From positions 1-60,475 of the forward strand of contig JBNJDL010000001.1 of NCBI GenBank assembly GCA_051744825.1: a stretch of 60,475 nucleotides of DNA, written 5' to 3'. The stretch comes from Bacillota bacterium. GTDB taxonomy: Bacteria > Bacillota > Halanaerobiia > Halanaerobiales > DATFIM01. The position numbers and the translations under genes are program-made. The notes under the pieces were generated by a model. It ran no database searches. It saw only the letters and a program-made list of their open reading frames with translations, and was not told the origin of the DNA. Numbering within the stretch: the first letter of the stretch is position 1; each line of letters begins with the position of its first letter. Below are positions 2,508 through 28,075 of this stretch, one piece after another.

Positions 2508-2573
2508 TAGGCTATCTCATCAGTCCAAGGAGCCTATCCCTTGAAGACTGGGAAATGAATACCCAGTTTCGAA
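2508..2573 (-). ncRNA. Hammerhead ribozyme motif, stem II-open (type II) permutation, copy 1
   Basis: Minus strand: UUC-GAAAC-UGGG(9-nt loop)CCCA-GUC / UUCAAGG-GAUAGGCU-CCUUGGA-CUGAUGAG-AUAGCCUA. All core boxes are present in the correct order. Loop I UAGGCU is complementary to the 3' tail AGCCUA. It starts right after the stop codon of 2574..2942. Confidence 0.7.
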
Positions 2574-3332: not shown

Positions 3333-3361
3333 ATTATATCACGTCTGGAGCCATTTGTAAA
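3333..3361 (-). promoter_or_regulatory. Early sigma70-type promoter, family 1 copy 1 (TTTACA-N17-TATAAT)
   Basis: Minus strand: GGGGTTTACAAATGGCTCCAGACGTGATATAATATAATTAGAGAG. The spacing was counted as exactly 17 nt. An A/T-rich UP-like tract lies upstream and a conserved leader downstream. Confidence 0.75.
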
Positions 3362-3402: not shown

Positions 3403-3466
3403 TTAGTCTGTCTCATCAGTGATAAGGGACTAATCTTATCAGACTGGGATCTCTCCCAGTTTCGAC
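3403..3466 (-). ncRNA. Hammerhead ribozyme motif, type II permutation, copy 2
   Basis: Minus strand: GUC-GAAAC-UGGGA-GAGA-UCCCA-GUC / UGAUAAG-AUUAGUCC-CUUAUCA-CUGAUGAG-ACAGACUAA. Loop I UUAGUC pairs with the tail GACUAA. It lies between the stop of 3479..3964 and promoter 3333..3361. Confidence 0.7.
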
Positions 3467-4059: not shown

Positions 4060-4097
4060 CCCTTTTTTGCAAGTTTTTTAAGTTTTTTTCAATTATT

Positions 4098-5761: not shown

Positions 5762-5772
5762 TTAATCACTCC

Positions 5773-6279
5773 TTAAAATTTATTAAACAAAATCAACGCC
5801 ATTACAGTTTCTACTGAAATAGGCTCATAATTTATTAATTCAACAGAAACACAAAAATGATTATTATCTTTCCATTTACTATTTTCATAAAACAATCCAT
5901 GAATATGACCATGGATATTAATTTGATTATTTTCAACTTCAATTGGTCTATGAGTAAATATTATATTTTTATCGTATTCATATTTATCAAATGCATCTTC
6001 AAATCCCATTCTATCTAAAAGTTTAGTTCTTGATTGTTGATCATGATTTCCTATTATTAAATATTTTTTACCATTCAACTGATTAAAAATTTCAAATTGT
6101 TTTTCAGTATTAGTCAAGGCAAAATCTCCTAAATGATAAACTATGTCATCTTCTTTAACTTTTTTATTCCAATTATGAATTAATTTTTTATCCATTTCAT
6201 CTGCGTTTTTAAATGGTCTATTTTCATATTTAATTATATTCTCATGACCAAAATGTGTATCAGCTATTAACCATTCCAT
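5773..6279 (-). CDS. Calcineurin-like metallophosphoesterase
   Basis: ADTHFGH, GDF, GNHD and HGHIH motifs occur in order. The start is set at MEWLIAD (ATG 6279) after AAAGGGGATGAAAAA. Confidence 0.75.
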   Translation of the reverse strand: MEWLIADTHFGHENIIKYENRPFKNADEMDKKLIHNWNKKVKEDDIVYHLGDFALTNTEKQFEIFNQLNGKKYLIIGNHDQQSRTKLLDRMGFEDAFDKYEYDKNIIFTHRPIEVENNQINIHGHIHGLFYENSKWKDNNHFCVSVELINYEPISVETVMALILFNKF

Positions 6280-6327
6280 TTTTTCATCCCCTTTATGTAT
6301 TACAAGGAGGAATTTCACCTCCTCATT

Positions 6328-7092
6328 TTAAGCTTCTTTTAATTGCTCTTTTAAATATTGTTTTGCTCCATCTAAAATTAAACTTATATATTGATGAGAT
6401 TTATCTAACTCTTCAGCTATTTCTTGAAGATTTTTCTGCTCAGTATCTATCCCATAATATTTATATATAATCTTTTTCTGTAATTCCGGAAGCTTTTTTA
6501 TTTCTTTGGTTAATTTATCAAACAATTCTCTTTGTCTTACATAATCAAAATGAGTTTTATTATCTTTTGATATTACATCACCAGCTAATTCTATTATATA
6601 ATCATAAGATACTATCTCAGAAAATGTTTGTTCAATTAAAAGACATTTATCATAACTCAAATCACTATTCTCAGATATTAATTTTGGAGTAATTTCTTTA
6701 TTATGCCTATCTTTTAATTCATTTTTAACAGCATTATATTTATTTAATTCTTCAAACATATTTTCTGGTATTTTTATTTTTGTATCCCTATATCTTATTA
6801 TAGAATGTTTTATCCAAAAACTAGCATAAGTTGAGAATTTTACATTTCTATCTGAATCAAATTTATCTATAGCTTTAACTAAACCTAAATATCCTTGCTG
6901 AATTAAATCTTCTAAATTATTATTTACATTATATTTTTGAGCTATGCTAATTGCCATACTCATGCATGATTTAATTAATTTATCTTTAGCTTCTTTATCA
7001 CCTTCTTGGGCTTTTTTAGCTAATTCTATTTGGTCTGATTTATTTAAATTATTATATTCTCCAGCTTGTTTTTTATATTCTAAAATATCCAT
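6328..7092 (-). CDS. RNA polymerase sigma factor, sigma-70 family (regions 2-4)
   Basis: Region 2: YLGLVKAIDKFD...FSTYASFWIKHSI. Region 4 HTH: LQEIAEELDKSHQYISLI. Confidence 0.8.
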   Translation of the reverse strand: MDILEYKKQAGEYNNLNKSDQIELAKKAQEGDKEAKDKLIKSCMSMAISIAQKYNVNNNLEDLIQQGYLGLVKAIDKFDSDRNVKFSTYASFWIKHSIIRYRDTKIKIPENMFEELNKYNAVKNELKDRHNKEITPKLISENSDLSYDKCLLIEQTFSEIVSYDYIIELAGDVISKDNKTHFDYVRQRELFDKLTKEIKKLPELQKKIIYKYYGIDTEQKNLQEIAEELDKSHQYISLILDGAKQYLKEQLKEA

Positions 7093-7119
7093 TATTTCAC
7101 CGCCTCTATCAGCATTTTA

Positions 7120-9384
7120 TTAACCACACTTAGACCAGCCACAATTTCTACAACTTGAACATCCACCTTCATGTTCTAACTTAAATCCACATTCTGGGCA
7201 TTTAGCTTCATCTTTTATTTCAACATCAGTTTTAACTTCTTTAGTTTTTTCTATAATATCAATTTCATCTGTGTGATTTATTTTTTCTTTTATTTCTTTT
7301 AATTTTAAAGCAATTGCTCCAGCGCAGCTTGCCCCTGGACTAACATCTTTTCCTTTACCTCTTGCAGCTTGATAAGCTGGGCAACTTCCTGCACTTAATA
7401 ATTGGTCAATTACATCATCTAATTTTATTCCACCTCTCAAAGATAATGAAATCAATCTTGATGTTGCTCTAGTGAATATCATACAACCTCCATTAGCTGA
7501 TTCAGTAAAAGTCTCAATAATATTATCATCATCATCAACAACAATTATAAGCCACATTGTGCCACAACCTGTGTCAAGTTTATATCTATAGCTTTTAGCT
7601 TTTTCTTGAGCGTCTCTAATTTCGCCTCTTTTAAGTTTATTATTTTTATTTGATTTTCCTTTTGTTTTTATATATGCTTCTGTATATGCCTCTATAAGTT
7701 TTTTATCTTCATTTTCATCTTCTTCATTTAAAACTTGGACTTGTCTGCTTCCATTCCTATAAATAGTTATTCCTTTTAATTGCCTCATAAATGCTTCTTT
7801 ATAAATAAAACTAACATCATCTTTAGTTGCATTTTCTGGGAGGTTAATTGTTTTAGATACTGCACTTCCAACATTTTTCTGCCAAGCAGCTTGCATTAAT
7901 AAATGGTCAATAGGATCAATATTTAAAGCTGTTCTTAAAGTATCTTTAGAAGCAACTTTAGTAAAATCATATTCTAATTGTGTTTTATTTCCATCCCCAT
8001 CAGTATGAGTATATTTTAAGCTAAAAAATGGCTCAATCCCATAACTAGTATTTGCTATTAAAGCTCTACTTCCCGTCGGAGCAACAGTTGTCAAAACTGC
8101 ATTTCTTCTAGGAGTTCTAATATCAGTATTATCAAAACCAGGAAATTCTCCTTTTTCTTCAGCTAGTTTTTCGCTATAATTAATAGCTGTATCATTAATG
8201 AATTCAGATAATTCTTCAGCTAAATCTCTTGCTTTTTTAGTATCATAAGGAATATCTAAATACATCAACATCTCATGAAATCCCATAACTCCAATCCCTA
8301 TTTTTCTATATTCTAAAGCTTTTTCTTCTAATTCTGGGAGTGGATAATCATTCATATCAATTACATCATCTAAAAACCTAACTGCATTTTCGACTATAGT
8401 TTCTAAATAATCCCAAGCAACTTCATAATTTATTGGCTTATTATCTACAAAATCAACAGCTCTTAACATATTAGCTAAATTAATTGCCCCTAAAATGCAT
8501 GATTCATAAGGAAGCAGAGGTTGCTCGCCGCATACATTTACTCCTTCAATTCTTTCATTAATTGGATGCTTTTCGTTTATTGTGTCTAAAAATATTAATC
8601 CTGGCTCTCCATTTTTATGAGCATATTCTACTATTAAATCAAACAATCCAACTGCGCTAACTGTGTCAACTACAGAATTATCTTTAGGACTTATTAAATC
8701 AAATTCTTCTTCATTCATAACTGCATCCATAAAATCATCAGTGATTCCAACTGAGATATTAAAATTAGTTAACTGTTTTTCAAGTAAAGTATTTTTTAAA
8801 ACTTCAGCTTCTTTTTTATTTAATTGAGATTTCATTGATTCATATATTTGTTTATTTTTATCATTAAGTTCACCTTTAGAAGTTACAAAATCAACTATAT
8901 CTGGATGATCTACTCTAAGAACTCCCATATTAGCGCCTTTTCTTCTTCCGCCTTGTTTTACAATATCAGTTGCTCTATCAAAAACTTTCATGAATGACAT
9001 CGGCCCACTTGAAACTCCATCAATATCGCCAACTCTTGCGCCTGATTCTCTTAATCTACTAAAAGCAAAACCAGTCCCACTCCCGGCTTTATTTACTAAA
9101 GCAAGTTCTTTTATAGCTTCAAATATTGAATCCATTGAGTCGTCTACTGGGAGAACATTGCAGGCTGACATATATTGTTCTTCAGTCCCTGCATTCATTA
9201 GACATGGACTATTAGGAATAAAATCCATATTAGTTAACATTGCTTCAAATTCTTCATACCATAAAACTGAATCAATTTCAGCTTCTGAAACAACATCAGC
9301 TACTCTTCTTGAAATATCTTGCCAATCTTCTTCTCCATCTAATAAGTATCTATCTTTTAAAAGTTGTTGAATTCTTTGCTCCAT
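7120..9384 (-). CDS. nrdJ: Ribonucleotide reductase, class II (adenosylcobalamin-dependent type) with C-terminal zinc ribbon
   Basis: NVCGEQPL active-site loop and TVAPTGS. C-terminal CPECG...CSSCRNCG. The start is set at MEQRIQQ (ATG 9384) after AGGAGG. Confidence 0.85.
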   Translation of the reverse strand: MEQRIQQLLKDRYLLDGEEDWQDISRRVADVVSEAEIDSVLWYEEFEAMLTNMDFIPNSPCLMNAGTEEQYMSACNVLPVDDSMDSIFEAIKELALVNKAGSGTGFAFSRLRESGARVGDIDGVSSGPMSFMKVFDRATDIVKQGGRRKGANMGVLRVDHPDIVDFVTSKGELNDKNKQIYESMKSQLNKKEAEVLKNTLLEKQLTNFNISVGITDDFMDAVMNEEEFDLISPKDNSVVDTVSAVGLFDLIVEYAHKNGEPGLIFLDTINEKHPINERIEGVNVCGEQPLLPYESCILGAINLANMLRAVDFVDNKPINYEVAWDYLETIVENAVRFLDDVIDMNDYPLPELEEKALEYRKIGIGVMGFHEMLMYLDIPYDTKKARDLAEELSEFINDTAINYSEKLAEEKGEFPGFDNTDIRTPRRNAVLTTVAPTGSRALIANTSYGIEPFFSLKYTHTDGDGNKTQLEYDFTKVASKDTLRTALNIDPIDHLLMQAAWQKNVGSAVSKTINLPENATKDDVSFIYKEAFMRQLKGITIYRNGSRQVQVLNEEDENEDKKLIEAYTEAYIKTKGKSNKNNKLKRGEIRDAQEKAKSYRYKLDTGCGTMWLIIVVDDDDNIIETFTESANGGCMIFTRATSRLISLSLRGGIKLDDVIDQLLSAGSCPAYQAARGKGKDVSPGASCAGAIALKLKEIKEKINHTDEIDIIEKTKEVKTDVEIKDEAKCPECGFKLEHEGGCSSCRNCGWSKCG

Positions 9385-9394
9385 TTTATACCTC

Positions 9395-9613
9395 CTATTT
9401 ATATTTATCTTCATTGAATATATTTTTTAAAGATTGTAATTTGTTGTTTATATAAATTACATATAAGATTACATAACTGAAACTAACTATAATAACTATT
9501 TTTGGCCCATAATAAATTCCATAGAATACTACAGTAAATCCTAAAACCGCTAACATCAACCAAAACATTATCCAACCTAATAATTCAAGAGGTTTAATCA
9601 GAATCACCCCCAT
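9395..9613 (-). CDS. Small two-helix membrane protein
   Basis: Two hydrophobic stretches (WIMFWLMLAVLGFTVVFYGIYYGPKIVIIVSFSYVILYVI). Confidence 0.5.
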   Translation of the reverse strand: MGVILIKPLELLGWIMFWLMLAVLGFTVVFYGIYYGPKIVIIVSFSYVILYVIYINNKLQSLKNIFNEDKYK

Positions 9614-10178
9614 TTATCATCTCAGGAAATGTAAGATTTTTATCTAAATAATTTCTAAAGTATTCCCATTCAACTAAACTAGAATGTTTTCTTTGAGAAT
9701 AAATAGTTTTCAACTGAAGATAATTAGTTGTAATTCTAGCTGTTAATTCCAATCCCATTGGAGAAGTTGCCATTATTTCTTGAAATATTGTTCTTTTGAC
9801 TTCTTTACTTTCAATGTCATTATAATCCTCAATTTTCTCTTCTAAAATATCAATTACTCTTTCATCAACAAAATCGCTGCATTGCTTTTTAATATCCATA
9901 TCTAATATTTTGTGCATTTTAGATTGACTTGAAATAATATCAGCAAAATGATAACGTCCAAATTGAAGCCACCAATATTGAGGAGCTGTAATATCAGCAT
10001 GAACTACAATTCCTTTTAAAGCACAATCATGACCACTCCCAATTGGAGCTTTAGCTAATTTTTCAAGTCTTTTATAATCTTTAGTTTCAACTATATTTTT
10101 TATCTCAGTTGATTTTGGATAACCGCTAGCAACTAAAGTTTCTTCAATATCATATTCCCTTAATTTATTTATTTTCAT
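9594..10178 (-). CDS. ThyX-like protein (FAD-dependent thymidylate synthase fold) with a divergent signature motif
   Basis: GHDCALKGIVVHADITAPQYWWLQFGRYHFADIISSQSKMH aligns by eye to the ThyX block ...QLvRHRiaSySqqSqRY. RYH replaces RHR. Confidence 0.45.
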   Translation of the reverse strand: MKINKLREYDIEETLVASGYPKSTEIKNIVETKDYKRLEKLAKAPIGSGHDCALKGIVVHADITAPQYWWLQFGRYHFADIISSQSKMHKILDMDIKKQCSDFVDERVIDILEEKIEDYNDIESKEVKRTIFQEIMATSPMGLELTARITTNYLQLKTIYSQRKHSSLVEWEYFRNYLDKNLTFPEMINGGDSD

Positions 10179-10179
10179 A

Positions 10180-10572
10180 TTAATTCCTCCATGCTATTTT
10201 ATAATTATTTTCTAAATACTTTTTATTAAAATTAAATTTTTGATTATCATCTGTTGTTGTTACATATTCTTCGTTATTTTCATATATTTCTAATATTTTT
10301 TTAGCATTAAATATTCCTTTTTTATTTTCTATAATATCGCCTTTTTTAAATTTAAAATCTTCAGCGGATAAATTATCTACAAAATCTTTAGCTTTCATTG
10401 CTGCCTCAGCTGGGCCTACTTCATTACATTCATATATTGTAGATTCGCTAACTATCTCTTTTACTATTGAATTCCACCCATACAACATATTTCTTAATAT
10501 TATTTTTTTATCTTTATATTCAAAAACTATTTCATAACAATCATCAAAAGGAATGTCAAAAGTTTTACTCAT
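10180..10572 (-). CDS. Hypothetical protein with FKxGD repeat (paralog group)
   Basis: The start is set at ATG 10572 (MSKTFDIP) after GGAGGG, overlapping the upstream stop. Contains FKKGDIIENKKG, which is shared with 10565..11152 and 11323..11691. Confidence 0.5.
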   Translation of the reverse strand: MSKTFDIPFDDCYEIVFEYKDKKIILRNMLYGWNSIVKEIVSESTIYECNEVGPAEAAMKAKDFVDNLSAEDFKFKKGDIIENKKGIFNAKKILEIYENNEEYVTTTDDNQKFNFNKKYLENNYKIAWRN

Positions 10573-11152
10573 CAGAATCCCTCCACAATAAATAATAATT
10601 ATCTTCAATATATGCTTTGTTATAATACAATTTATCTTTAAGTATTTCTGTGACTAAATAATGTTGCCTATCTTCATCATATTTTATAATTTTTTTATTA
10701 TTATATTCATCATCAGTTCCTATTATATCTCCAGCTTTAAATCTATTTTCTGCAATTATTTTTAGACTATTTTTACTAAACATATCATTCAAAAGATCAC
10801 CTTCAGAATCAATATAACTAACTGCATATCTATCCCCATAATAATCTTCTTCATCTGCTATCCCGAATATAGTTCCTTTATGATTATCATTAATTATAAC
10901 TTTGTCGCCGACTTTAAAACTTTCTGTTTTACAAATCTTTTCAATCATTTCTGGCCCCCAAGTCCAATCTTCATCACCCTCTAAATATATATATTCTTTA
11001 TCATAATCAATTTTTTCAACAGTCATTTTACTGCCTCTATATTTACCCATTAGTTTAGTGAAATAAATAGTATTTCCATATAGCTTTTCTTCAATTAAAT
11101 CATTTCTAATTATAACTTCATCACCAATTTCAAGTTCATCAATATTAATCAT
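10565..11152 (-). CDS. Hypothetical protein with three (L/F)x(I/V/A)GD(E/K/I)(V/I)I repeats
   Basis: LEIGDEVIIRND, FKVGDKVIINDN and FKAGDIIGTDD. The block YAVSYIDSEGDLL is shared with 11323..11691. Confidence 0.55.
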   Translation of the reverse strand: MINIDELEIGDEVIIRNDLIEEKLYGNTIYFTKLMGKYRGSKMTVEKIDYDKEYIYLEGDEDWTWGPEMIEKICKTESFKVGDKVIINDNHKGTIFGIADEEDYYGDRYAVSYIDSEGDLLNDMFSKNSLKIIAENRFKAGDIIGTDDEYNNKKIIKYDEDRQHYLVTEILKDKLYYNKAYIEDNYYLLWRDSDE

Positions 11153-11164
11153 TTTAGTTCCCCC

Positions 11165-11326
11165 TTAATTTTTTATGCCTCTTTCAAATCTTTTGCCTTC
11201 AAAATATTCTTTTTCATAATCACAGCCAGGAGTTTGACATCTTTCCAACTTCTCTCTCAGATAACCTCTATCATAATCTTCATAAACTAAAACCATTTTT
11301 GAGCCGCAATTTTTACAGTAACTCAT
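11165..11326 (-). CDS. Small zinc-ribbon protein (53 aa, below the ORF-track cutoff)
   Basis: ATGA overlap with the stop of 11323..11691. Sequence MSYCKNCGSKMV...CQTPGCDYEKEY has two Cys pairs. Confidence 0.45.
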   Translation of the reverse strand: MSYCKNCGSKMVLVYEDYDRGYLREKLERCQTPGCDYEKEYFEGKRFERGIKN

Positions 11327-11691
11327 TTTTCTTCTTCACTCCAAACTAAACTATAAATTCCACTTTCTACAAACTCTTTAGCATTTTTTAATTCTTCTCC
11401 GTGCTTAGTTTCCATAATGTATGAATTATCTACTATATCAGTTATTTTTCTATAAGGAAAATCAACATCTAAATACTTTAATATATCGCCTACTTTAAAT
11501 TTGAATTCTTTAACTTTTTCTAAATCTTCTTTTCTATATAATTCATAAACTAAATCACCTTCATAATCAATATAACTAACTAAAACATCATACCCGACAA
11601 AATCTTTTTTAGCCATTATACATTCAACAGTTGCTTTATCGCCACTTCTAATTATAACCTTATCCCCAACTTTTAAATTATCATTATTCAT
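11323..11691 (-). CDS. Hypothetical protein, FKVGD-repeat paralog
   Basis: LKVGDKVIIRSGD...VLVSYIDYEGDLV...FKVGDILKY. Confidence 0.55.
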   Translation of the reverse strand: MNNDNLKVGDKVIIRSGDKATVECIMAKKDFVGYDVLVSYIDYEGDLVYELYRKEDLEKVKEFKFKVGDILKYLDVDFPYRKITDIVDNSYIMETKHGEELKNAKEFVESGIYSLVWSEEEK

Positions 11692-11742
11692 TTTATCCCC
11701 TCCATATTTTTATTATAACATAAATAATTGACTTTGTAAAAT

Positions 11743-12132
11743 TTATTTTTCTTTAGGCCACCCAATTCTTTTACCTCCATTTTCATCAGTGCATTCTTGA
11801 GTATATAAGTATCCATCCAATTCAATTATTTTTTCTGTTAATCTCTCAGCTAATTTATAAATATCATTATACAATTTCATTCTCTTTTTATAGTCTTCAT
11901 AATAAGGTTGAGCCATCTCAGCTAATTGATATTCTTCTTTTTTAATCCTATCGAGTAATTTATAGTGTATATGTTTTAGATCGTTTAATTCTTCAAGTTC
12001 ATCTAACAATCCATATCTACCTAAGTGTGAATTACCATATTCTTTATCGCCTTCAGCCTCTCTTGCTTGTCTCCATTTTCTAAATTCTTTTTCTGACATA
12101 TCGCAAATTCTTTTAGGATTTTTAATTTTCAA
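11743..12132 (-). CDS. Hypothetical protein
   Basis: ORF in the gene train. The start is uncertain (TTG at 12132 close to a GGGGG tract). Confidence 0.45.
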   Translation of the reverse strand: MKIKNPKRICDMSEKEFRKWRQAREAEGDKEYGNSHLGRYGLLDELEELNDLKHIHYKLLDRIKKEEYQLAEMAQPYYEDYKKRMKLYNDIYKLAERLTEKIIELDGYLYTQECTDENGGKRIGWPKEK

Positions 12133-12263
12133 TACCCCCTACTTTTATATTAAAATATTCTATAACTAAAATTAATATAATCATAAAATCATTTAATGGC
12201 TTCATTATTAGTTTATAATACCAAGGCAAAAAGTCCGGAGAAGTATATAAAACTTTATCAATT

Positions 12264-12704
12264 TCATCCTCTAAAATGAACAGCTTCAACACCTCCGGCT
12301 TCTAAGAATTCTTTTTGATTATCATATTCATCAAAAGCTTCCATTCTATTATCATTATATTTATTGATATAAATTACTTTTTCAATTCCAGCTTGAATTA
12401 TAGCTTGACAACAATTAATACAAGGTTGATGAGTTACATAAAGAATAGCGCCTTTGGATTCTTTGCCAGCTTGGATTATCGCATTAATTTCAGCATGAAC
12501 TGCCCGATGACAATGATTATCTTCTCCAATTGCGCAACCAACATCAGTGCAGTGAGCCATATTTCTTGGAGCCCCATTATAACCAGTCCCTACTATATTA
12601 TTATTTTTAACTATCAAAGCCCCAACTGTGCCTCTTGGGCAGGTAGATCTTTCAGCTGCAGCTTTTACAATTTTTATAAAATACTCAGACCATGAAATCC
12701 TCAT
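12264..12704 (-). CDS. dCMP deaminase (cytidine/deoxycytidylate deaminase zinc-binding family)
   Basis: HAEINAI and PCINCCQAI zinc-ligand motifs with the spacing typical of dCMP deaminases. Confidence 0.85.
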   Translation of the reverse strand: MRISWSEYFIKIVKAAAERSTCPRGTVGALIVKNNNIVGTGYNGAPRNMAHCTDVGCAIGEDNHCHRAVHAEINAIIQAGKESKGAILYVTHQPCINCCQAIIQAGIEKVIYINKYNDNRMEAFDEYDNQKEFLEAGGVEAVHFRG

Positions 12705-13185
12705 ATAACTCCTCCTTTATTGATTTGATTTCCCTACTTATTGTTGATTGAGATAAATTTGTTTTATCAGCGATTTCAGATTGTGTATAATCATCTATTA
12801 ATAATTTCATAATTTCAAACTTCCTTTCATCTAATTCTTTTTTAAAATAATCTAAAGCTTCTAATTCATAATATGGATTCTCATTAGATTTTAAATATTT
12901 CATTTTATCATAACCATCTTCTTCTCTAGCTTCAACTTCACTCCAATCTATCTTAACAATATCATTTTTAGTTAACTTTTTAAGCCTATTCAATATAATT
13001 GTTTTTGCATAATTTGAAAAAGCTTTTACTGGGAAGTTTTCAAAATCAAATTTTATTGCAGCTAAAGTTAATCCATATAAAGCTTCTGAATATCTTTCCT
13101 GGTGATTAAGATTCTTAAATTTCTTACACAAAGATTTTGCTAACGGGATATATTTTATAATTAAAGTTTCCCTTCGTTCTTCCAC
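12685..13185 (-). CDS. Small sigma factor (ECF-like, regions 2 and 4 only)
   Basis: About 166 aa. Region 2-like: EALYGLTLAAIKFD. Region 4 HTH: YTQSEIADKTNLSQSTISREI. Confidence 0.6.
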   Translation of the reverse strand: MEERRETLIIKYIPLAKSLCKKFKNLNHQERYSEALYGLTLAAIKFDFENFPVKAFSNYAKTIILNRLKKLTKNDIVKIDWSEVEAREEDGYDKMKYLKSNENPYYELEALDYFKKELDERKFEIMKLLIDDYTQSEIADKTNLSQSTISREIKSIKEELYEDFMV

Positions 13186-13221
13186 ATAATCACTCCTTTT
13201 GAGTTTTGAGTTGATTAATTA

Positions 13222-13464
13222 TTATATTTTTCTTTTTTCATCTTCAACATTATCATTAGCTAAAGCTTCATTACAAGCAGACATTATATTTTTTAATCCA
13301 TCTCTATCAGTTTGAATTGCATTCTTTACAAAGAATTTTATTACTTGCCCATCCGATTCTGCAACAATCTGTTGAGCTACTGAGATTTTACCATCACTTC
13401 TTCTTGAGATAACTAAATTCCTATTTTCACCAATTTTAACTTTTGCTAATTCTTTAAATTTCAT
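13222..13464 (-). CDS. Hypothetical protein
   Basis: First ORF after family-2 element A, with RBS AGGGGGAATTAAA upstream. Confidence 0.55.
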   Translation of the reverse strand: MKFKELAKVKIGENRNLVISRRSDGKISVAQQIVAESDGQVIKFFVKNAIQTDRDGLKNIMSACNEALANDNVEDEKRKI

Positions 13465-13504
13465 TTTAATTCCCCCTGTTTTTTAGTTTATGTTATTTTA
13501 CAAA

Positions 13505-13605
13505 TATCGCATGAGAAGCCGTTCTGGCCACTTTTTATTATATGAGTATTATACTATTAATATTATAATTATCATAGCCTCATCGACCTCTCACACGCTG
13601 TGCAG
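13505..13605 (-). promoter_or_regulatory. Conserved roughly 100-nt intergenic element, family 2 copy A (function unknown; contains a TATAAT box)
   Basis: Minus strand: CUGCACAGCGUGUGAGAGGUCGAUGAGG-58 nt-GCUUCUCAUGCG. The same boxes with the same 58-nt spacing recur at 25241..25340 and 57798..57896. TAGTATAAT lies at 13556..13548. Confidence 0.5.
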
Positions 13606-13752
13606 CTATTTTACAATCTCTCTTATCTGTTCATAAGCCATAGCTTTTTCAGCCTTTTCTTGTGTAGCATTCACAATATCTTTTTTGCTATTCTTAGAAT
13701 ACTTATCTTCCATTTTATCAACAATAACTTTTATTTGTTCTAATTTATTCAT
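13606..13752 (-). CDS. Small hypothetical protein (48 aa)
   Basis: ATG 13752 overlaps the stop of 13745..14083 (AAAAATGAATAA). It ends at TAG 13608..13606, directly abutting element A. Confidence 0.4.
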   Translation of the reverse strand: MNKLEQIKVIVDKMEDKYSKNSKKDIVNATQEKAEKAMAYEQIREIVK

Positions 13753-14083
13753 TTTTTGCCACCTTAATTCTGACATTCTCTTCAATAATATTTGTTAGTT
13801 TATTTGTATCAAATGTTTTTGGATCACACTTGAATTCAAATTTAGCATTTCCATCTTTATAAATTTGCAGCTTCCAGAATATATTTCTAGGTATCTCAAT
13901 CAAAGCTTCTTCATCTAACTCTTCAAATATTTTAACTTCAAAAAAATCATCAACAACCATGACAGTTTGTATTACATTAGATATTTCAGAATATGGGGCC
14001 TCAAACCTTAACTTTAAATTCCCATCACTAAAAACATCACTTTTATCAAATACTGATTCAAACTCACAAATTTCTTTTGCCAT
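13745..14083 (-). CDS. Hypothetical protein
   Basis: ORF sharing its start/stop junction with 14083..14403. Confidence 0.6.
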   Translation of the reverse strand: MAKEICEFESVFDKSDVFSDGNLKLRFEAPYSEISNVIQTVMVVDDFFEVKIFEELDEEALIEIPRNIFWKLQIYKDGNAKFEFKCDPKTFDTNKLTNIIEENVRIKVAKNE

Positions 14084-14403
14084 TAATTATTACCCCCTAA
14101 TAATATTTTTACAGCTCTAGATAAAGCTAAGTATTTACCAAAGACTTCTATATTTAAGTCATCTTCACTAACCTTAGCTGTTGTATACAATTCAAATTCC
14201 CTAGTAGTTTTATTTTTCTTCCCCACTATGCAACAACTACTTCCGTTTATTGAACAATATAATTCTATTACTCTATAACCTCTTTTACCTAATTCAGCTT
14301 TTAATTCATTAATTTTACGTTCTGTTTTTTCAATTATAGCTTCAGCTACATTTATATCAGACAAAGCTAATTCTTCAGCATAACTAAGCTGATTTTTAGT
14401 CAT
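14083..14403 (-). CDS. Hypothetical protein
   Basis: ORF in the gene train. Confidence 0.6.
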   Translation of the reverse strand: MTKNQLSYAEELALSDINVAEAIIEKTERKINELKAELGKRGYRVIELYCSINGSSCCIVGKKNKTTREFELYTTAKVSEDDLNIEVFGKYLALSRAVKILLGGNN

Positions 14404-14405
14404 TA

Positions 14406-14696
14406 TTATTCCCCCTCCTTTTTGAGTTTTTCTAATTCTTGAGCTACTTCTAATAAATCAAATGGTCTAACCATTATCCAACTAAAATCACCAACAAAAT
14501 CAACAACAAAGAAAGGAAGTTTTTGATATTTTCTAGCATTAAATATTAAAGTCTTAAAGTCTTCTCTGTTCAACCTAGTAGTCTTCTTTTCTGTAGATTT
14601 TAATTGCATGAGTAATTTATCTGAAACACCATCTTCTTTATATAATACTGTATTTCCACTCCCTTTTTGAGGTTTCAATCCAAGGTTTCTGATCAA
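14406..14696 (-). CDS. Hypothetical protein, possibly PD-(D/E)XK-like; N-terminus uncertain
   Basis: The frame stays open upstream to 14747 with GGAGGG-N6-ATA but no ATG, GTG or TTG. The track start TTG 14696 has no spacing to AAGGAA. GSGN...D...QLK is only weakly nuclease-like. Confidence 0.4.
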   Translation of the reverse strand: MIRNLGLKPQKGSGNTVLYKEDGVSDKLLMQLKSTEKKTTRLNREDFKTLIFNARKYQKLPFFVVDFVGDFSWIMVRPFDLLEVAQELEKLKKEGE

Positions 14697-14770
14697 TTCC
14701 TTCTCATCTTTTGTAATCTCTTTTTTACTTCTATATTTACTTATATTAATCCCTCCTTTTTTAAGTTGTT

Positions 14771-14795
14771 AAAAGTGGTTTTTAAAGGGAACCAC
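14771..14795 (-). terminator. Weak intrinsic terminator-like hairpin after the SprT-like gene
   Basis: Minus strand: GUGGUU-9 nt-AACCAC followed by UUUUAA. Confidence 0.35.
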
Positions 14796-14810
14796 AAAAC
14801 CCTTCTATAA

Positions 14811-15767
14811 TTAATCTTCTTCAACTTCTAATCTGAAATCTCCACTTCCGCAATGGTTACAAGTATAGCCTGGATTGTTAATTATTATCATCATTTTATC
14901 TGTTTTTCTTGATTGAGTTTTAAGAAGTTTCCCACATTCTTCACAATATATTTTATATTTTCCAAATCCAATGTTGTGACTTAATCTTATATCTCTATCA
15001 TTACAATATTCTTTAAATATAGGACTACTGTCTCCTTCTTTGGTTATTGCATGAGCTAATTCATGTTTTATTGTGTTAAAATATTCATCAATTCCTTTAT
15101 CATTGTTAGGAAGCTTAGGATTAACCTTCATCTCAGCAAGGCCAACAACCTCGCCAGTTATTCTATTTCTTCTAATTCCAATATTTCCAGCTGAAGTTCT
15201 TAATCTTCCATCAAATTTTATATCTTCTATTTCATCTATTATTTGAGATTCATTTAAAAATTCTGCCATCATTTTACAATCTTCAATTAAGTCTTCATTT
15301 GTTAGAATATCTCCAATTGTATTTTCATCACTTTTTGAAATCATTGAAGTTCTTCTTGATATGTAAGTTTCTTCATTTACTTCAGTATCTTTAATTTTAT
15401 TTTCTACTTCATTTCCTTTTTTATAATTGGAATAAAATATTGCTGCTTTTTTCAACATTTTATATTCTGCAGATTGTTCTCTACTTCTCATGCTTCCATC
15501 AAATTTTAATGTTTCATTTTGGTTTTCTAATACTATTTCAATTGTTACATAATTTTTATAATTGGTTGGATATAAATAAGCACTAACTTCTCCAAAATTT
15601 ACTGCAAATTCTGGTTTATCTTTTCTTAAAAACTTTCCATATAATGTTGTTTTTACTTCATATTCAGATTCTAAATTATACTTTTCTTGTTCATTTTCAT
15701 TGAAAATTAATCTCTTTCTGCTAAAGTCACTTCCGTTTACTTTTCTTTCAATTGTTTTAAATTTCAT
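14811..15767 (-). CDS. SprT-like zinc metalloprotease domain protein with C-terminal zinc ribbon
   Basis: HELAHAI (HExxH) followed by CEECGK...CNHCGS. Confidence 0.65.
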   Translation of the reverse strand: MKFKTIERKVNGSDFSRKRLIFNENEQEKYNLESEYEVKTTLYGKFLRKDKPEFAVNFGEVSAYLYPTNYKNYVTIEIVLENQNETLKFDGSMRSREQSAEYKMLKKAAIFYSNYKKGNEVENKIKDTEVNEETYISRRTSMISKSDENTIGDILTNEDLIEDCKMMAEFLNESQIIDEIEDIKFDGRLRTSAGNIGIRRNRITGEVVGLAEMKVNPKLPNNDKGIDEYFNTIKHELAHAITKEGDSSPIFKEYCNDRDIRLSHNIGFGKYKIYCEECGKLLKTQSRKTDKMMIIINNPGYTCNHCGSGDFRLEVEED

Positions 15768-15822
15768 CTTAATCTCCCCTTTTTGAGTTTTTTGGGTTTT
15801 CTTATTTGCACCTTCTATATTA

Positions 15823-15851
15823 ATTATAACATGTTTCAGGGGATTTGTAAA
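15823..15851 (-). promoter_or_regulatory. Early promoter, family 1 copy 3
   Basis: Minus strand: GGGGTTTACAAATCCCCTGAAACATGTTATAATTAATATAGAAGG, giving TTTACA-N17-TATAAT. Confidence 0.7.
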
Positions 15852-15879
15852 CCCCTAAATGAAAGTTTTTTATATTTTT

Positions 15880-15945
15880 TTAATCTATCTCATCAGAGTG
15901 AAGTGATTAATCTTCACTGACTGGGAACTTAATCCCAGTTTCGAA
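15880..15945 (-). ncRNA. Hammerhead ribozyme motif, type II permutation, copy 3
   Basis: Minus strand: UUC-GAAAC-UGGGA-UUAAGU-UCCCA-GUC / AGUGAAG-AUUAAUCA-CUUCACU-CUGAUGAG-AUAGAUUAA. Loop I UUAAUC pairs with the tail GAUUAA. It starts 3 nt after the stop of 15948..16190. Confidence 0.7.
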
Positions 15946-15947
15946 TT

Positions 15948-16190
15948 TTATAGAAAATCTTTTTTAATTGCGTCTTCTATATATTCAATTATATTTTCTT
16001 CCCCATAATATTCTATTGGATCAACGCTATCTCTTAAAGTCTCATCAAAAATTGGAACTGTAATTGCAAATCCCTTATATTCAAAAAACGGCAGATAGTC
16101 AATATCATCATAACCTCTATTGATTTTTTCAAATACATCTTTAGCAACATCTTCAACTCTCTTTAATAATAATTCATTTTTAATTTCCAT
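15948..16190 (-). CDS. Hypothetical protein
   Basis: ORF with ATG 16190 after AAGGAGTGGATAAA. Confidence 0.55.
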   Translation of the reverse strand: MEIKNELLLKRVEDVAKDVFEKINRGYDDIDYLPFFEYKGFAITVPIFDETLRDSVDPIEYYGEENIIEYIEDAIKKDFL

Positions 16191-16253
16191 TTTATCCACT
16201 CCTTTTGATTTTTGAGTTTTTGAGCAGTTTTAAATCTTACTCAGGATTTTATT

Positions 16254-16523
16254 TTATTTCATATCATTTATTAAAAGCTGTGTATAAATTTTTTCTTTTA
16301 ACATTTTTTCTAATTTTGTCATAAACATTTTAAAACTTCTGTCTGTTAATCCATCAATATATTCGTTATATCTTGAATTATTTTTTATAGTTATTTTAGA
16401 CTGTTTTATAAAATATTTTAAATCATTTTCTTTTTCTTCTAATTTTTCTAATCCATTATTTTCTACAAAATTTGCTATTGTTCTATGAGCTATACTCCTA
16501 ATTGTCTCTTGCCTTTTAGTCAT
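16254..16523 (-). CDS. Hypothetical protein
   Basis: First ORF after promoter copy 4, with ATG 16523 after AAGGAGTGGAAATA. Confidence 0.55.
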   Translation of the reverse strand: MTKRQETIRSIAHRTIANFVENNGLEKLEEKENDLKYFIKQSKITIKNNSRYNEYIDGLTDRSFKMFMTKLEKMLKEKIYTQLLINDMK

Positions 16524-16571
16524 TATTTCCACTCCTTATTTTTATCCCTTATTTTCTTACCTTCTAATTAT

Positions 16572-16600
16572 ATTATATCATGTATTGAGTAGTTTGTAAA
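16572..16600 (-). promoter_or_regulatory. Early promoter, family 1 copy 4
   Basis: Minus strand: GGGGTTTACAAACTACTCAATACATGATATAATATAATTAGAAGGTAAGAAAATAAGG. Confidence 0.75.
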
Positions 16601-16629
16601 CCCCTAAAGGCAAATTATTTTAATTATTT

Positions 16630-17100
16630 TTAACTTTTTTCTTCCATATCCCTAATAGCGGTTAATCCTATTCCAACTGCGTCAGCTGTATCTTTTTGAA
16701 TATCTTCAGTTAATCCATAAAATTCACAAATATATTTATTCATTTCATCTTTACTACATCTACCATTTCCTGTAACAACTTTTTTAACATGAGTTGGATG
16801 ATAAAATTCATATTCATCAATACCAATTTCAACAGCTTTTGTTAATACTACTCCAAAGAATATGTTCATAGTTTCTAATGATTGCCTATTTGGTCCATAA
16901 GGCTTCTCTAAAGCTAAGTGGTCAATATTTTCATACATTTTTAATAATCTGCTAAAATCTTCAGCTATCTTTTTAACTCTTTTCAAACCTGTATTTTTAT
17001 ATTTAAAATTGCCATAAGCTTTTAATTCTTCATCATCAAAAATTGCCCAACCAGTAAGATTGCCAGTTGTAGTTCCTGGATCTATACTTAAAATTCTCAT
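16630..17100 (-). CDS. ruvC: RuvC-like Holliday junction resolvase
   Basis: N-terminal ILSIDPGTTTG catalytic Asp motif. About 156 aa. A C-terminal acidic residue lies in DTADAVGIG. Confidence 0.75.
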   Translation of the reverse strand: MRILSIDPGTTTGNLTGWAIFDDEELKAYGNFKYKNTGLKRVKKIAEDFSRLLKMYENIDHLALEKPYGPNRQSLETMNIFFGVVLTKAVEIGIDEYEFYHPTHVKKVVTGNGRCSKDEMNKYICEFYGLTEDIQKDTADAVGIGLTAIRDMEEKS

Positions 17101-17831
17101 TTATTTAATTCCCCCAATTTATTTTTATTAAAACAATATTCTGTGCAATTACAAGTATTAGCTCTTCCAGCATTTCTTGAAATACATCTATCATGTTGCG
17201 GCGGAAGAATCCCATTTTTATTAAATTTATTTATTCCTTCCCAAATTTTAGATTCTCTTTCAATATATTTTTTAACAAAGTCTGGCTCATATTCTTGAAA
17301 ATAAATTTCATAATCAGCTGTATTTATATTTTCATAAATAACAAAACCTCTAGGAATTCCAGTTAGATACATATAAAATTGTATTTGTCTTTTAGTTGCG
17401 ATTGGCAGTTTTGTCATTGAATTAAATTTTTCACCTTTACTAGTTTTAATTTCAACAATATATCTTTTGCCCCACATATTTGCAATAATATCTGGAGTCC
17501 CGGTTGTTCCAAACCTATTGCCATGCTGCTTTTCTATTCTATCAGCAATCCCATTATTTTTAAAAATATCTTGCCATTTTTCATGCAAATAATTACCATT
17601 TTCTAATCTGTTAATAGTTTTTGGCGGAAGTGGCATAAATTCATCTTTTTCAACAAAATAATTTATAACCTGTTCTCTTAAACAAAAACTTCCTTCCGGC
17701 ATTATAATTGAAGAAGCGTGGATTCCGCCTCTTTGTTTTTTATCATATTGAATTTTATTATTTTCAATAATTGCTTCATCTAATTTTTCTTTAATCATTC
17801 CCTCTTTTAAATCTAAAAAATCATTAGTCAT
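17097..17831 (-). CDS. PD-(D/E)XK nuclease of the Cas4/RecB-like type with a C-terminal Cys cluster
   Basis: GTPDIIA...YIVEIKTSK (D...ExK) plus C-terminal CISRNAGRANTCNCTEYC. Confidence 0.65.
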   Translation of the reverse strand: MTNDFLDLKEGMIKEKLDEAIIENNKIQYDKKQRGGIHASSIIMPEGSFCLREQVINYFVEKDEFMPLPPKTINRLENGNYLHEKWQDIFKNNGIADRIEKQHGNRFGTTGTPDIIANMWGKRYIVEIKTSKGEKFNSMTKLPIATKRQIQFYMYLTGIPRGFVIYENINTADYEIYFQEYEPDFVKKYIERESKIWEGINKFNKNGILPPQHDRCISRNAGRANTCNCTEYCFNKNKLGELNK

Positions 17832-18669
17832 CTTCCTTTTCCCTCCTAATCTTTCTAATCTCTCTCATAACTTTTCTATCTTCACTTGGATTTACAAAAC
17901 CTCTATCAAATATTAAACTAATTTCAGCTTCTCTATAAGGAGGACAAACTTTAGATTTATAACTTCTTAAATTTATTAATTGGCCTTCAACATCGCCTGA
18001 CATCCTTAGCCATTTTTTTCTTGCAACTCTTATTCTTAAACTACTATAATGTTTTAAAGCATGACCACCTGGAGTTGTATATGGAGCAAATCCACTTCCG
18101 ATATTATCTCTAACTTGATTTATAAATACAACTGTAGTTCCATTCTTTTCAGCTTCTCTTGCAATCTTAAACATCCATCTTGAAAGCAATCTAGCAACTC
18201 CAGCAAAATTAGCTTTACTTCTATCTTTTTCATTTATATTCTCTTTAGGGACTAATGCTGGAACTGAGTCAACTACTATTAATGGCATTCCGGCTTCACA
18301 AGCTTTTATAATTGTATCTATTGCTTCTTCCCCATAATCAGGTTTTCTTACAATTAATTGGCCTTCTTTATTGCCAAACTGTTTAGCCCTATCAGCACTA
18401 AAACTTCCTTCCATATCAATATGAAGTGCATAATCATATAAGCTTTCCCATTGATGAGCAATTGTAGTTTTTCCAGCTGATTCAACTCCATATAATTCTA
18501 TAATTCTGCCAACAGGAATCCCACCACCCATTAAAAAATCTATCTGTTCAATACCAGTTTCAACTCTTTCGATTTCCCTCCCACCATCTTCACCTAAAAA
18601 ATATATAGATCCTTTACCAAATTCATTATCAATTTCATCCATTAATTGTGTTACTTTCCCTTTATCCAT
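17824..18669 (-). CDS. RecA-family recombinase/ATPase
   Basis: Walker A: YGVESAGKTT. Walker B-like: LIVVDSV. About 280 aa, next to nuclease and resolvase genes. Confidence 0.7.
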   Translation of the reverse strand: MDKGKVTQLMDEIDNEFGKGSIYFLGEDGGREIERVETGIEQIDFLMGGGIPVGRIIELYGVESAGKTTIAHQWESLYDYALHIDMEGSFSADRAKQFGNKEGQLIVRKPDYGEEAIDTIIKACEAGMPLIVVDSVPALVPKENINEKDRSKANFAGVARLLSRWMFKIAREAEKNGTTVVFINQVRDNIGSGFAPYTTPGGHALKHYSSLRIRVARKKWLRMSGDVEGQLINLRSYKSKVCPPYREAEISLIFDRGFVNPSEDRKVMREIRKIRREKEDD

Positions 18670-18680
18670 CTAACCACCTC

Positions 18681-21278
18681 TTAATAAATATTTGTATTCA
18701 TGTTTTGTAAGAATTGATTCCACTTGATAGTTCTTCTCCAGTAAGTTTTAGAATTAAATTGTAAAGCTCCATATTCTTGCAACTTTTCAATTACTCTTTT
18801 ATTTGCATATCTTTTAGGAACTCTTTCAATAAAATCTTCTTCAGATTTGAATGGTGCTCTTTTACCAATCTCTTCAGCTGTAGTTTTACCAATCCCTTTT
18901 ATTTTCATAATTCCTTCTTGAATAACTTTTTCACCTTCAACTTCCTGAATTGTAAAATCTGCTCCTCCATTAACATGAGCTAATAAAATAAGAATATCAT
19001 TTTGTGTAGCAGCTGCTAAATATTTATTTATTTTATAGTCATGTTTTTCATTTTTAAGAAGTGCATAAAAGAATTCTATCGGATAATAATATTTTAACCA
19101 AGCTGTATAGAATGAAGTAATAGAATATGCAGCACCGTGCCCCTTATTAAATAAGTAAGCTGTCATTTGATTAAATAATTCATTAGCTTCATTTTCAGTT
19201 AATCCATTATTAGAAGCCCCTTTTATAAATTCATTTTTAACTTCTTCATCTTCACCTAAAGCTTTCATAATATAATCAGTTTTATCCCAATCAAGTTCGC
19301 CTAAATCCCTACAAATTCTCATAACCTGTTCTTGAAATATTATAGCTCCATAGGTTTCTTTAGCGTATTCATAAAAAGTTCCATCTTTATTTACTTCACC
19401 ATTTTTAGCTCTTATATATTCATCAAGAATTCCTAATTGTTTTGGAGCCGGTCTATTTAAAGCATTGCAGGCTATTAGTTCATGAATATTTTTTGGATTA
19501 ACTCTTTGCAAAACATCAACTGCACCAGGTTTTTCAAATTGAAATACCCCAACACTTTTACCTTCAGACAACATCTTATAGACATTTTTATCTTCTAAAT
19601 ATTCTTCTTTCAATTCTACTCCAACTTTCTTTTCTACATCATTTATTACAGACAAAGTTGATAAACCTAAAACATCCATTTTAAGAACACCAATATCACT
19701 CAAACCATCTAAATCATAAGCTGTTTGCAAACTTCCTTTATATTTTTGTAGTCCAACATAATTTGTAATATCATCTGGAGCTATTGCAATTCCTGCTGCA
19801 TGTTTTCCAGTAAATCTAGTTTGATTATATAACCTTTGGAAGTGCTCAAGATAATTATATTTTTTATCATATTTCCTTAATTTAGCATTATTCTGTAATT
19901 CAGCTAAAGGTGGTCTATCCCCACCATCGATTATTCTTGACAATTCTGATTTTATATCATCCCTATCATCATCAGGAATATCAAGAACTTTAGCTAAATC
20001 ATTCATCAAATTCTTTTCTTTATAGTATCCAAAAGTTGAAATATGAGCTGATTTTCCTTCATATTTTTTAAGCAAATAATCTAATATTTCATCCCTTCTA
20101 TTTGCATCAAAATCCATATCAATATCAGGCATTTTCTTCTTTTCTTTACGCATAAATCTTTCAAAGTCAGTCCCAAATATTATTGGATCTACATCAGTTA
20201 AACCTAAAGAATAAGCTAATAAACTTCCACCAACTGAGCCTCTTCCAAAACCATATCTAATTCCATTATCTTTTGCATATTCAACAATATCATAACAAAG
20301 TAAAAAGTAATCATCATACCCTTGGGAATGAATTACATCTAACTCAAATTCCAATTGATTTATATATTCTTCAGTATTCTTTTCTTTTTTATCAAGCCCA
20401 TTATAAGCCAATTCTTTTAACATTTTTGGTGATGGTTTTTCCCAATCTTGGTCAGGCATCATATTATCAAAATCTAATTCAACATTAACTTTATTGACTA
20501 ATTCTTCTGTGTTTTTTATAAGCGGCTCAATATCAATATCTGGATTTACATTATTTAATAAAGTCTTTAATTGTTCTTCAGTCGGCATGTATCGATTTTC
20601 ATATACCGGCCCAGGATTTTTATCTTTAATAGCCATCATTAGTCTATAAGTATCCCAAGCGTCAGCTTCTGTATAATGAGAATCATTTGTTATAATAACT
20701 GGAGTATCTGTTTTATCTCCTAATCTAACTATAGTAGAATTTATTTTAGGCTGAATATCTAAATCAACAGGCATAACTTCTAAATAAAAATCATCACCAA
20801 ATATTGATTTAAATTTATTAACTATTTCAATTAAGTTTTCATCTGACATTCCATTTGTAATCATCTTTGGAATATACCCACCGGCACAAGCTGTTGACAT
20901 TATTAAACCTTCATGATATTTTTCTAATAATTCAAAAGTAAAGTTTGGTTTATAATGATAATAATCTCTACTGGCTTCAGTCTGTAATTTCATTAAATTC
21001 TGATAACCTTTCATATTTTTAGCTAATATGACTATATGGTATCTATCATTTTCTTTGCTAAATTCAGGCATAAAATACCCTTCAACACCTAAAACTGGTT
21101 TTATATCATGTTTTTTACAAGCATTATAATGATTTATTAATCCACTAATATCTCCATGATCTGTTATTCCTAAAGCTGGTTGGCCAATTTTTGCCGCATA
21201 TTCTGCCGCTTGATTACAATCCCCAAATCCATCCCAACTACTGAACATTGAGTGTCTATGCAAATTACTCCATGTCAT
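18681..21278 (-). CDS. dnaE: DNA polymerase III alpha-type replicative polymerase (PHP + Pol IIIA domains)
   Basis: N-terminal PHP region HRHSMFS...GITDHG. Also GRGSVGGSLLAYSLGLTDVDP, PDIDMDF and a C-terminal HhH-like KIKGIGKTTAEEI. Confidence 0.85.
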   Translation of the reverse strand: MTWSNLHRHSMFSSWDGFGDCNQAAEYAAKIGQPALGITDHGDISGLINHYNACKKHDIKPVLGVEGYFMPEFSKENDRYHIVILAKNMKGYQNLMKLQTEASRDYYHYKPNFTFELLEKYHEGLIMSTACAGGYIPKMITNGMSDENLIEIVNKFKSIFGDDFYLEVMPVDLDIQPKINSTIVRLGDKTDTPVIITNDSHYTEADAWDTYRLMMAIKDKNPGPVYENRYMPTEEQLKTLLNNVNPDIDIEPLIKNTEELVNKVNVELDFDNMMPDQDWEKPSPKMLKELAYNGLDKKEKNTEEYINQLEFELDVIHSQGYDDYFLLCYDIVEYAKDNGIRYGFGRGSVGGSLLAYSLGLTDVDPIIFGTDFERFMRKEKKKMPDIDMDFDANRRDEILDYLLKKYEGKSAHISTFGYYKEKNLMNDLAKVLDIPDDDRDDIKSELSRIIDGGDRPPLAELQNNAKLRKYDKKYNYLEHFQRLYNQTRFTGKHAAGIAIAPDDITNYVGLQKYKGSLQTAYDLDGLSDIGVLKMDVLGLSTLSVINDVEKKVGVELKEEYLEDKNVYKMLSEGKSVGVFQFEKPGAVDVLQRVNPKNIHELIACNALNRPAPKQLGILDEYIRAKNGEVNKDGTFYEYAKETYGAIIFQEQVMRICRDLGELDWDKTDYIMKALGEDEEVKNEFIKGASNNGLTENEANELFNQMTAYLFNKGHGAAYSITSFYTAWLKYYYPIEFFYALLKNEKHDYKINKYLAAATQNDILILLAHVNGGADFTIQEVEGEKVIQEGIMKIKGIGKTTAEEIGKRAPFKSEEDFIERVPKRYANKRVIEKLQEYGALQFNSKTYWRRTIKWNQFLQNMNTNIY

Positions 21279-28025: not shown

Positions 28026-28075
28026 ATAATTAGAGAGTAACAAAAGGGACACTAAAAAAAAGAGGAGTGAATAAA

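Follow-up and report, generated by a model that had tools for sequence, protein, structure and literature searches.

A predicted type II hammerhead ribozyme between a small open reading frame and a promoter in an A+U-rich tailed-phage genome

The locus and the anatomy of copy 3

The DNA analyzed here (hereafter the window) is an entire NCBI contig of 60,475 bp, labelled 'MAG: Bacillota bacterium'. Its G+C content is 29%, nearly all of its genes lie on the minus strand, and it encodes a large terminase, a head protein, a tape measure protein, a polymerase III alpha subunit (Pol III alpha), RuvC and two tRNAs. The contig is a tailed-phage genome. The two tRNA genes, tRNA-Thr(UGU) and tRNA-Met(CAU), are adjacent (60222-60382, minus strand) and sit at the upstream end of the minus-strand gene array. 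The element studied here, copy 3 of three hammerhead motifs in the window, is found in the replication and accessory-gene half of the genome. It is flanked by the following features, all on the minus strand; the internal positions of copy 3 were read from the sequence.

15948..16190: upstream open reading frame (ORF) of 80 aa, from an ATG at 16190 to a TAA stop at 15950-15948, with no family match
15880..15945: type II hammerhead ribozyme copy 3 (sequence, descriptor scan, custom CM R1, MFE fold, covariation)
U15944-C15943 (5') and G15889-A15888 (3'): the two strands of stem II
C15943-G15942-A-A-A15939: C11.1, G12, A13, A14 and A15.1
15938-15933 and 15926-15921: stem III, CUGGGA and UCCCAG
15932-15927: stem III loop, UUAAGU (6 nt)
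15920 and 15919: U16.1 and C17
15918-15912 and 15903-15897: stem I, AGUGAAG and CUUCACU (7 bp)
15911-15904: loop I, AUUAAUCA (8 nt)
15896-15890: core C3-A9, CUGAUGA
15889: G10.1
15887-15886: linker, U15887-A15886
15885-15880 with 15910-15905: pseudoknot, tail GAUUAA with loop I UUAAUC
15823..15851: sigma70-type promoter, TTTACA-17-TATAAT with a TG extended -10, downstream of the copy 3 tail
14811..15767: downstream gene of 318 aa, with a weak SprT-like metalloprotease match and an HELAH motif

Read from 15945 to 15880 on the minus strand, the RNA is UUC-GAAA-CUGGGA-UUAAGU-UCCCAG-UC/AGUGAAG-AUUAAUCA-CUUCACU-CUGAUGA-GAUA-GAUUAA, where the slash marks the predicted cut. The open helix is stem II, which makes copy 3 a type II permutation. 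This helix has 2 bp (C15943-G15889 and U15944-A15888), and its third position is a U-U. Most type II members have a pseudoknot of at least 4 bp joining loop I to the bases 3' of stem II; that of copy 3 has 6 bp, and its tail starts 4 nt past CUGAUGA, as in most family members. The invariant core that defines the class is complete (CUGAUGA at 15896-15890, GAA at 15942-15940, the A15939-U15920 pair and C15919). The pairs next to the core are all canonical, namely G15889-C15943 (10.1-11.1), A15918-U15897 (1.1-2.1) and A15939-U15920 (15.1-16.1), so that copy 3, with its three helices, falls within the acceptance rule of Perreault et al. The MFE fold of a 74-nt copy 3 RNA consists of exactly stems III and I (-18.9 kcal/mol, z = -3.4).

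An initial annotation of this DNA had placed a hammerhead with intact core boxes at 15880-15945, and the minus-strand sequence, the descriptor scan and CM R1 all agree with it. Its assignments of stems and loops and its pairing of loop I with the tail are confirmed by the sequence, as is its predicted cut between 15919 and 15918, a position set by C17 (15919). A few details had to be adjusted. The CUGGGA/UCCCAG pairs of stem III are correct as annotated, and the helix comes to 7 bp once A15.1-U16.1 is counted. The order of stop codon, ribozyme and sigma70-type promoter holds as well; the ribozyme had been said to begin 3 nt after the stop, and in fact 2 nt separate the TAA from 15945, with the stop 4 nt away from C11.1. 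The distance from the tail (15880) to the -35 hexamer (15851), given as about 30 nt, is 28 nt.

Two further candidate features were discarded. A plus-strand ORF of 45 aa that overlaps copy 3 (15783-15920) was considered a chance ORF, in an A+T-rich genome whose genes are on the other strand. An alternative stem II between UCUAU (15954-15950) and AUAGA (15888-15884) was rejected, being absent from copies 1 and 2.

Sister copies, covariation and the wider family

The other two hammerheads of the window lie close to each other on the minus strand.

3403..3466, minus: type II hammerhead copy 2 (descriptor scan, R1, and RF02276 in a local scan)
3333..3361, minus: promoter of the same family as 15823..15851, 41 nt downstream of copy 2
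2508..2572, minus: type II hammerhead copy 1 (descriptor scan, R1)

Copy 2 has a stem II of 3 bp, stem I UGAUAAG/CUUAUCA and pseudoknot UUAGUC/GACUAA, with a predicted cut between 3442 and 3441. Copy 1 has stem I UUCAAGG/CCUUGGA and pseudoknot UAGGC/GCCUA, and would be cut between 2546 and 2545. It starts 1 nt after a stop codon (2576-2574), and the next ATG lies about 25 nt past its tail with a ribosome-binding site (RBS) in between. Between copies 2 and 1 lies a block of two genes, a DUF4258 gene (2976-3284) and a 125-aa ORF. A gene for a Zeta_toxin/AAA_33-like kinase (3479-3964) precedes copy 2, and the gene after copy 1 (2075-2494, minus strand) has a weak match to DMP19-like DNA mimics, which at 22.1 bits does not reach the 25-bit cut-off. 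The neighbors of copies 1 and 2 resemble accessory genes for toxins or anti-defence.

A strict descriptor of the type II fold, made up of GAAA, an A-U-closed hairpin, H, a second hairpin and CUGANGA in that order, matched the window three times, always on the minus (coding) strand, and the matches are the three copies. Chance would yield 0.03 descriptor matches per Markov-simulated window of the same dinucleotide make-up, and none occurred in 300 simulations once a pair in stem II and a pseudoknot of 5 bp or more were demanded as well. The heptamer CTGATGA occurs 26 times in the window, exclusively on the minus strand, with 8.7 occurrences expected over both strands. When its contexts were inspected, the hammerhead layout was present around three of these heptamers and missing around the other 23. 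Chance as the origin of the motif was considered and rejected, only 3 of the 26 CTGATGA contexts being hammerhead cores.

To place these copies in a wider family, we used a pattern scan of IMG/VR with CGAAACUGGG..CCCAGUC..CUGAUGAG, which gave 27 phage contigs of the same layout; a scan of 13 of these 27 loci found 12 elements at the RF02276 (Hammerhead_II) gathering score. The CM R1 was built from 23 IMG/VR relatives, with no window sequence in the training set. It scored copy 2 at 73.1, copy 3 at 64.6 (E 1e-16) and copy 1 at 59.4 bits, values that are somewhat inflated because 18 of the 23 training sequences had been retrieved by a pattern fixing the stem III that the window copies share. The best non-hammerhead match to R1 in the window reached 11.9 bits, and with filters off the model found nothing else above that score, hence no further or degenerate copy.

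The initial annotation had made its case depend on compensatory changes maintaining the stems in relatives. Since the closest relatives found for the phage lack the ribozyme (see below), compensatory change was assessed with paralogues and the wider family rather than with orthologues. Such changes are present at both levels. The window copies have the same core and the same stem III, but almost entirely different stem I sequences. Both sides have changed in 5 of 7 stem I pairs and in 2 of 6 pseudoknot pairs (AU/GC swaps), and 95.7% of cells are paired among the three copies, as compared to 33-46% when the partners are slid; stem III, invariant among these copies, is uninformative for covariation there. 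The wider family, represented by 46 distinct members, has 98% of its cells paired and double changes at 12 of 15 pairs, values that none of 500 shuffles reached. Of the 40 members that could be parsed, 35 have the helix between loop I and the tail at the same tail offset, and this helix occurs in 28 different sequences. Its mean length is 5.0 bp, against 3.24 +/- 0.16 bp with permuted tails, and none of 5000 permutations reached 5.0. The hammerhead helices have therefore undergone compensatory substitution both in the window and in the family. On this sequence evidence, copy 3 is a canonical and statistically secure type II hammerhead.

Rfam in its default form does not see it. A whole-window gathering scan reported just two tRNAs, with no hammerhead, twister, twister-sister, hatchet or pistol. 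Scans of 241 nt and 81 nt gave no RF02276 match for copy 3 even at E <= 10, only noise that was mostly snoRNA-like; the missing report means that no score was given, and is not a measured sub-threshold value. Copy 2 (here 3402-3467, minus strand) scored 40.3 bits in a local scan against the gathering score of 37, and was nevertheless missed in the whole-window scan, which indicates that speed filters lose A+U-rich members. The gathering threshold (37 bits) was taken as an operational criterion, not a structural or defining one, and the structural features that define a type II hammerhead (RF02276) are all present in copy 3. None of the three copies in this A+U-rich genome is picked up by default Rfam annotation, so that hammerheads are probably under-counted in low-GC phages.

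The architecture of copy 3 adds nothing new to what was described, together with its phage context, in 2011. In the type II consensus, both stem I and stem III end in loops, a stem II of only 1-2 bp is allowed, and loop I pairs as a pseudoknot with the bases directly 3' of stem II (Perreault et al., 2011, PLoS Comput Biol, PMC3088659). Copy 3 shares with the members of RF02276 the circular permutation, the invariant core, a stem II of 1-3 bp and a pseudoknot of 4-7 bp that starts 3-4 nt after G10.1. The placement between phage or prophage genes, often with several ribozymes per genome, is also common to both, and the stem III CUGGG/CCCAG of the window copies recurs in many members. Copy 3 differs in its base composition (34% G+C, against 50-65% in most type II members), in a stem I that opens with A-U where the family usually has U-A, and in the U-U of its stem II. 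Its minimal stem II and its 6-bp clamp between loop I and tail resemble the ribozyme of Figure 4 of Perreault et al. (2011), whose sequence differs. Deletion, mutation and compensation established that the pseudoknot is needed for fast cleavage, with kobs > 1 min-1 at 0.5 mM Mg2+ requiring it (PMC3088659, Figure 4).

No close phage was found in INPHARED, single-query searches of IMG/VR with either the SprT-like protein or Pol III alpha yielded no relative, and the SprT-like protein had no record in the assemblies index. The closest relatives of Pol III alpha came from a protein search (loci L028-L032, at 69, 67, 54 and 49% polymerase identity). They keep the order polymerase, exonuclease-like gene and RuvC, and differ in gene content after RuvC. 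A CM search with filters off found no type II hammerhead in these loci, including in a syntenic region of Pol III alpha, RuvC and small ORFs, and no Rfam family was found in L028-L031. A first pattern scan of JGI metagenomes gave no close copies of the A+U-rich versions. The single match of a second metagenome scan (L033) was discarded as a chance occurrence inside a GC-rich coding region. In GTDB genomes, a scan with the general pattern returned one Sumerlaeota MAG contig alone, carrying two copies. The absence of the ribozymes from relatives, together with the lack of close copies in these searches, suggests that they belong to a variable, accessory part of the genome.

The neighboring promoters

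The promoter at 15851-15823, which serves the SprT-like gene (14811..15767), belongs to a family of seven near-identical promoter and leader copies at 27921, 27440, 16600, 15851, 4059 and 3361 on the minus strand and at 27997 on the plus strand. The consensus of the seven is GGGGTTTACAAA...TATAAT, and promoter and leader together read (A)GGGGTTTACAAA-N13-gaTATAATATAATTAGAAGGTAA.... Several copies have their -35 region within a short inverted repeat (GGTTTACAAACC-like) that could be an operator. A divergent pair of these promoters at 27.9-28.0 kb flanks two plus-strand genes (28067-28556).

The initial annotation had proposed, from the shared layout of copies 2 and 3, that ribozyme and promoter may behave as one reusable unit-boundary module. 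Under this hypothesis the two would have been copied together and would act as one cassette, closing a transcription unit and opening the following one. In its favor, a promoter of this family comes within 28-41 nt after two of the window's three ribozymes. Some support also comes from a 153-kb contig of an unrelated phage, which carries a type II hammerhead followed after about 35 nt by a perfect TTGACA-18-TATAAT (L011, 5440-5601, minus strand; the same element is in L018). The proposal is not supported as worded, however. A hammerhead precedes only two of the seven promoter copies (15851 and 3361) and is lacking at the other five, while copy 1 has no promoter and is directly followed by an RBS and ATG. 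The spacers of 28 and 41 nt have no sequence in common beyond the promoter itself, and the stem I and pseudoknot sequences of the copies are unrelated, which argues against recent duplication of one block. Outside the window, the distance from the end of the ribozyme model to the next start codon has a median of 14 nt and is at most 31 nt in 38 of 41 members, leaving no room for a promoter. We thus consider a jointly copied cassette improbable; ribozyme and promoter are juxtaposed, and do not form a duplicated DNA unit.

The juxtaposition is unusual all the same. Given that most gaps in the family do not exceed 31 nt, the gaps of about 110 nt that follow copies 2 and 3 stand out, gaps of at least 100 nt being found in just 3 of the 41 members elsewhere. 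The 153-kb contig of L011 and L018 accounts for one of these three, and its promoter is situated in that gap. The arrangement of stop codon, ribozyme and promoter is distinct from the usual one of stop codon, ribozyme and RBS. Its presence in the unrelated 153-kb contig indicates that it arose at least twice, and because it recurs there, ribozyme and promoter may still be paired functionally. The promoter-adjacent layout and the failure of default Rfam in a low-GC phage are the only points of some novelty here.

Proposed role, alternatives and meaning

The explanation that we favor is that copy 3 is very probably a type II hammerhead of tailed-phage RNA that cleaves itself in cis, positioned between the 80-aa ORF and the next promoter. 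This grade applies to the explanation as a whole. Its secure part is the identity of the ribozyme, to which architecture, statistical significance, covariation and family relationship speak directly; from these we infer catalysis and its physiological consequence, and the physiological role is considerably less certain, five of the seven related promoters doing without a ribozyme.

Cleavage would proceed along the following lines. Transcripts from an upstream promoter, for instance the one at 16600-16572, would traverse two small ORFs and enter the ribozyme; they would be expected to reach copy 3 because a simple terminator scan detected no intergenic intrinsic terminator on the minus strand in positions 1-20000. 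Stems III and I would fold as local hairpins during transcription, as the hammerhead literature suggests. The GAUUAA tail would then pair with UUAAUC of loop I and hold stem I parallel to the 2-bp stem II, and this pseudoknot would close the catalytic core (CUGAUGA and GAAA). The 2'-OH of C17 (15919) would attack the adjacent phosphate and cut the RNA between 15919 and 15918. The upstream mRNA would be left with an end formed by the stem III hairpin, 29 nt past the stop codon, and a 2',3'-cyclic phosphate, and the downstream RNA with a 5'-OH at the base of the stem I hairpin. Read-through or polycistronic transcripts would in this way be split at the boundary of a gene cassette, and both units could acquire independent ends and stabilities.

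A role of this kind has precedents. The general proposal, as yet unproven, is that such ribozymes process polycistronic transcripts into messages of differing stability or translatability (PMC3088659; PMC6765202). Multiple hammerheads often flank individual genes or small clusters of them in prophages (PMC3088659). In the triple arrangement of Agrobacterium tumefaciens (Perreault et al., 2011, Figure 3), as in the window, several ribozymes bracket genes or gene blocks. The window departs from such prophage arrays in that a strong promoter comes after copies 2 and 3 instead of the next gene's RBS, which is rare in the family. One IMG/VR contig (L027, IMGVR_UViG_3300033551_000003) has 16 R1 matches in about 11 kb (about 80-11050), nearly one per gene boundary, several with variant cores such as CCGAUGA at 2973-3040 and CUUGAAGA at 3850-3919.

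Other self-cleaving RNAs offer points of comparison. The glmS ribozyme of Bacillota is ligand-dependent, lies in a 5' UTR and destabilizes its own message (summarized in PMC6765202). Like copy 3, it is a self-cleaving RNA within an mRNA of a Gram-positive system, and its 5'-OH product decides the fate of the downstream RNA; copy 3 has no ligand domain, and its 5'-OH end is predicted to lie at the base of a hairpin. The anti-restriction protein ArdA is a DNA mimic. The ardA gene is immediately downstream of a hammerhead in three Legionella strains (PMC3088659), an arrangement reminiscent of copy 1 and the DMP19-like DNA-mimic gene that follows it. Twister, twister-sister, hatchet and pistol ribozymes occur in the same phage-associated contexts and have likewise been proposed to process polycistronic mRNA (review, PMC6765202), so that the same job is ascribed to different folds.

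A more specific reading, which we put forward tentatively as possible rather than probable, is that certain phages use a type II hammerhead, set between a stop codon and a strong promoter of host type, as a terminator-free boundary of transcription units that trims read-through RNA. The downstream unit would then be expressed solely from its own promoter-defined leader. The layout occurs twice in this genome and once in the unrelated 153-kb contig, which under this reading would make it a recurrent, selected arrangement. In another IMG/VR locus (L004, 720-790, minus strand), a terminator-like hairpin with a U-run (GGGGAGCG...CGCUCCUCUUUUU) lies directly upstream of a type II hammerhead, an arrangement indicating that ribozyme and terminator can coexist at one boundary.

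The proximity of the stop codon raises the question of whether copy 3 might instead act as a conditional switch. With the stop just 4 nt from the core, a terminating or queued ribosome could cover GAAA and the 5' half of stem III, which would make cleavage dependent on whether the upstream ORF is translated; the pseudoknot might otherwise be modulated by a protein or ligand. The spacing is compatible with such a switch: in each of the window's three copies the stop lies 1-11 nt away from the ribozyme model, and in 43 family members it does so at a median of 6 nt, overlapping the model in several of them. At this distance a terminating ribosome would be expected to occlude part of the ribozyme, and regulated cleavage of phage hammerheads was raised as a possibility by Perreault et al. 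(PMC3088659). Genome compaction alone would give equally tight spacing, however, and we saw no additional conserved domain, aptamer-like insertion or alternative conserved pairing, so that regulation of this type appears unlikely. Across the family loci (L001-L027) and the window, the upstream stop usually either overlaps the 5' strand of stem II or lies 0-6 nt away.

The element could also be an inactive relic, or serve a purely structural purpose in which its two hairpins stabilize the RNA or act as a barrier to decay. The lack of an Rfam match for copy 3, a stem II of just 2 bp with U-U at the third position, and stems rich in A+U would all fit a degenerate ribozyme. They weigh little against the pattern of sequence change: the invariant core is kept in all three copies while stem I has been almost entirely replaced through compensatory changes, which points to selection on the catalytic architecture, and the pseudoknot covaries too. 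Moreover, natural type II hammerheads with a stem II of 1-2 bp and a 6-bp pseudoknot cleave fast (PMC3088659). We therefore regard a relic or a mere structural element as very improbable, and a self-cleaving hammerhead in phage RNA is the explanation we retain.

The role of the thousands of hammerheads of bacteria and phages has been described as 'largely elusive' (PMC6765202). The window offers a natural comparison within one phage genome, where two of seven near-identical promoters are accompanied by a ribozyme and another ribozyme occupies an ordinary inter-cistronic position. Such a set-up could be used to measure the effect of cleavage on the stability and translation of the flanking messages. 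With two promoters preceded by a ribozyme and five not, a defined system of this sort could make the long-open function of bacterial and phage hammerheads directly testable.
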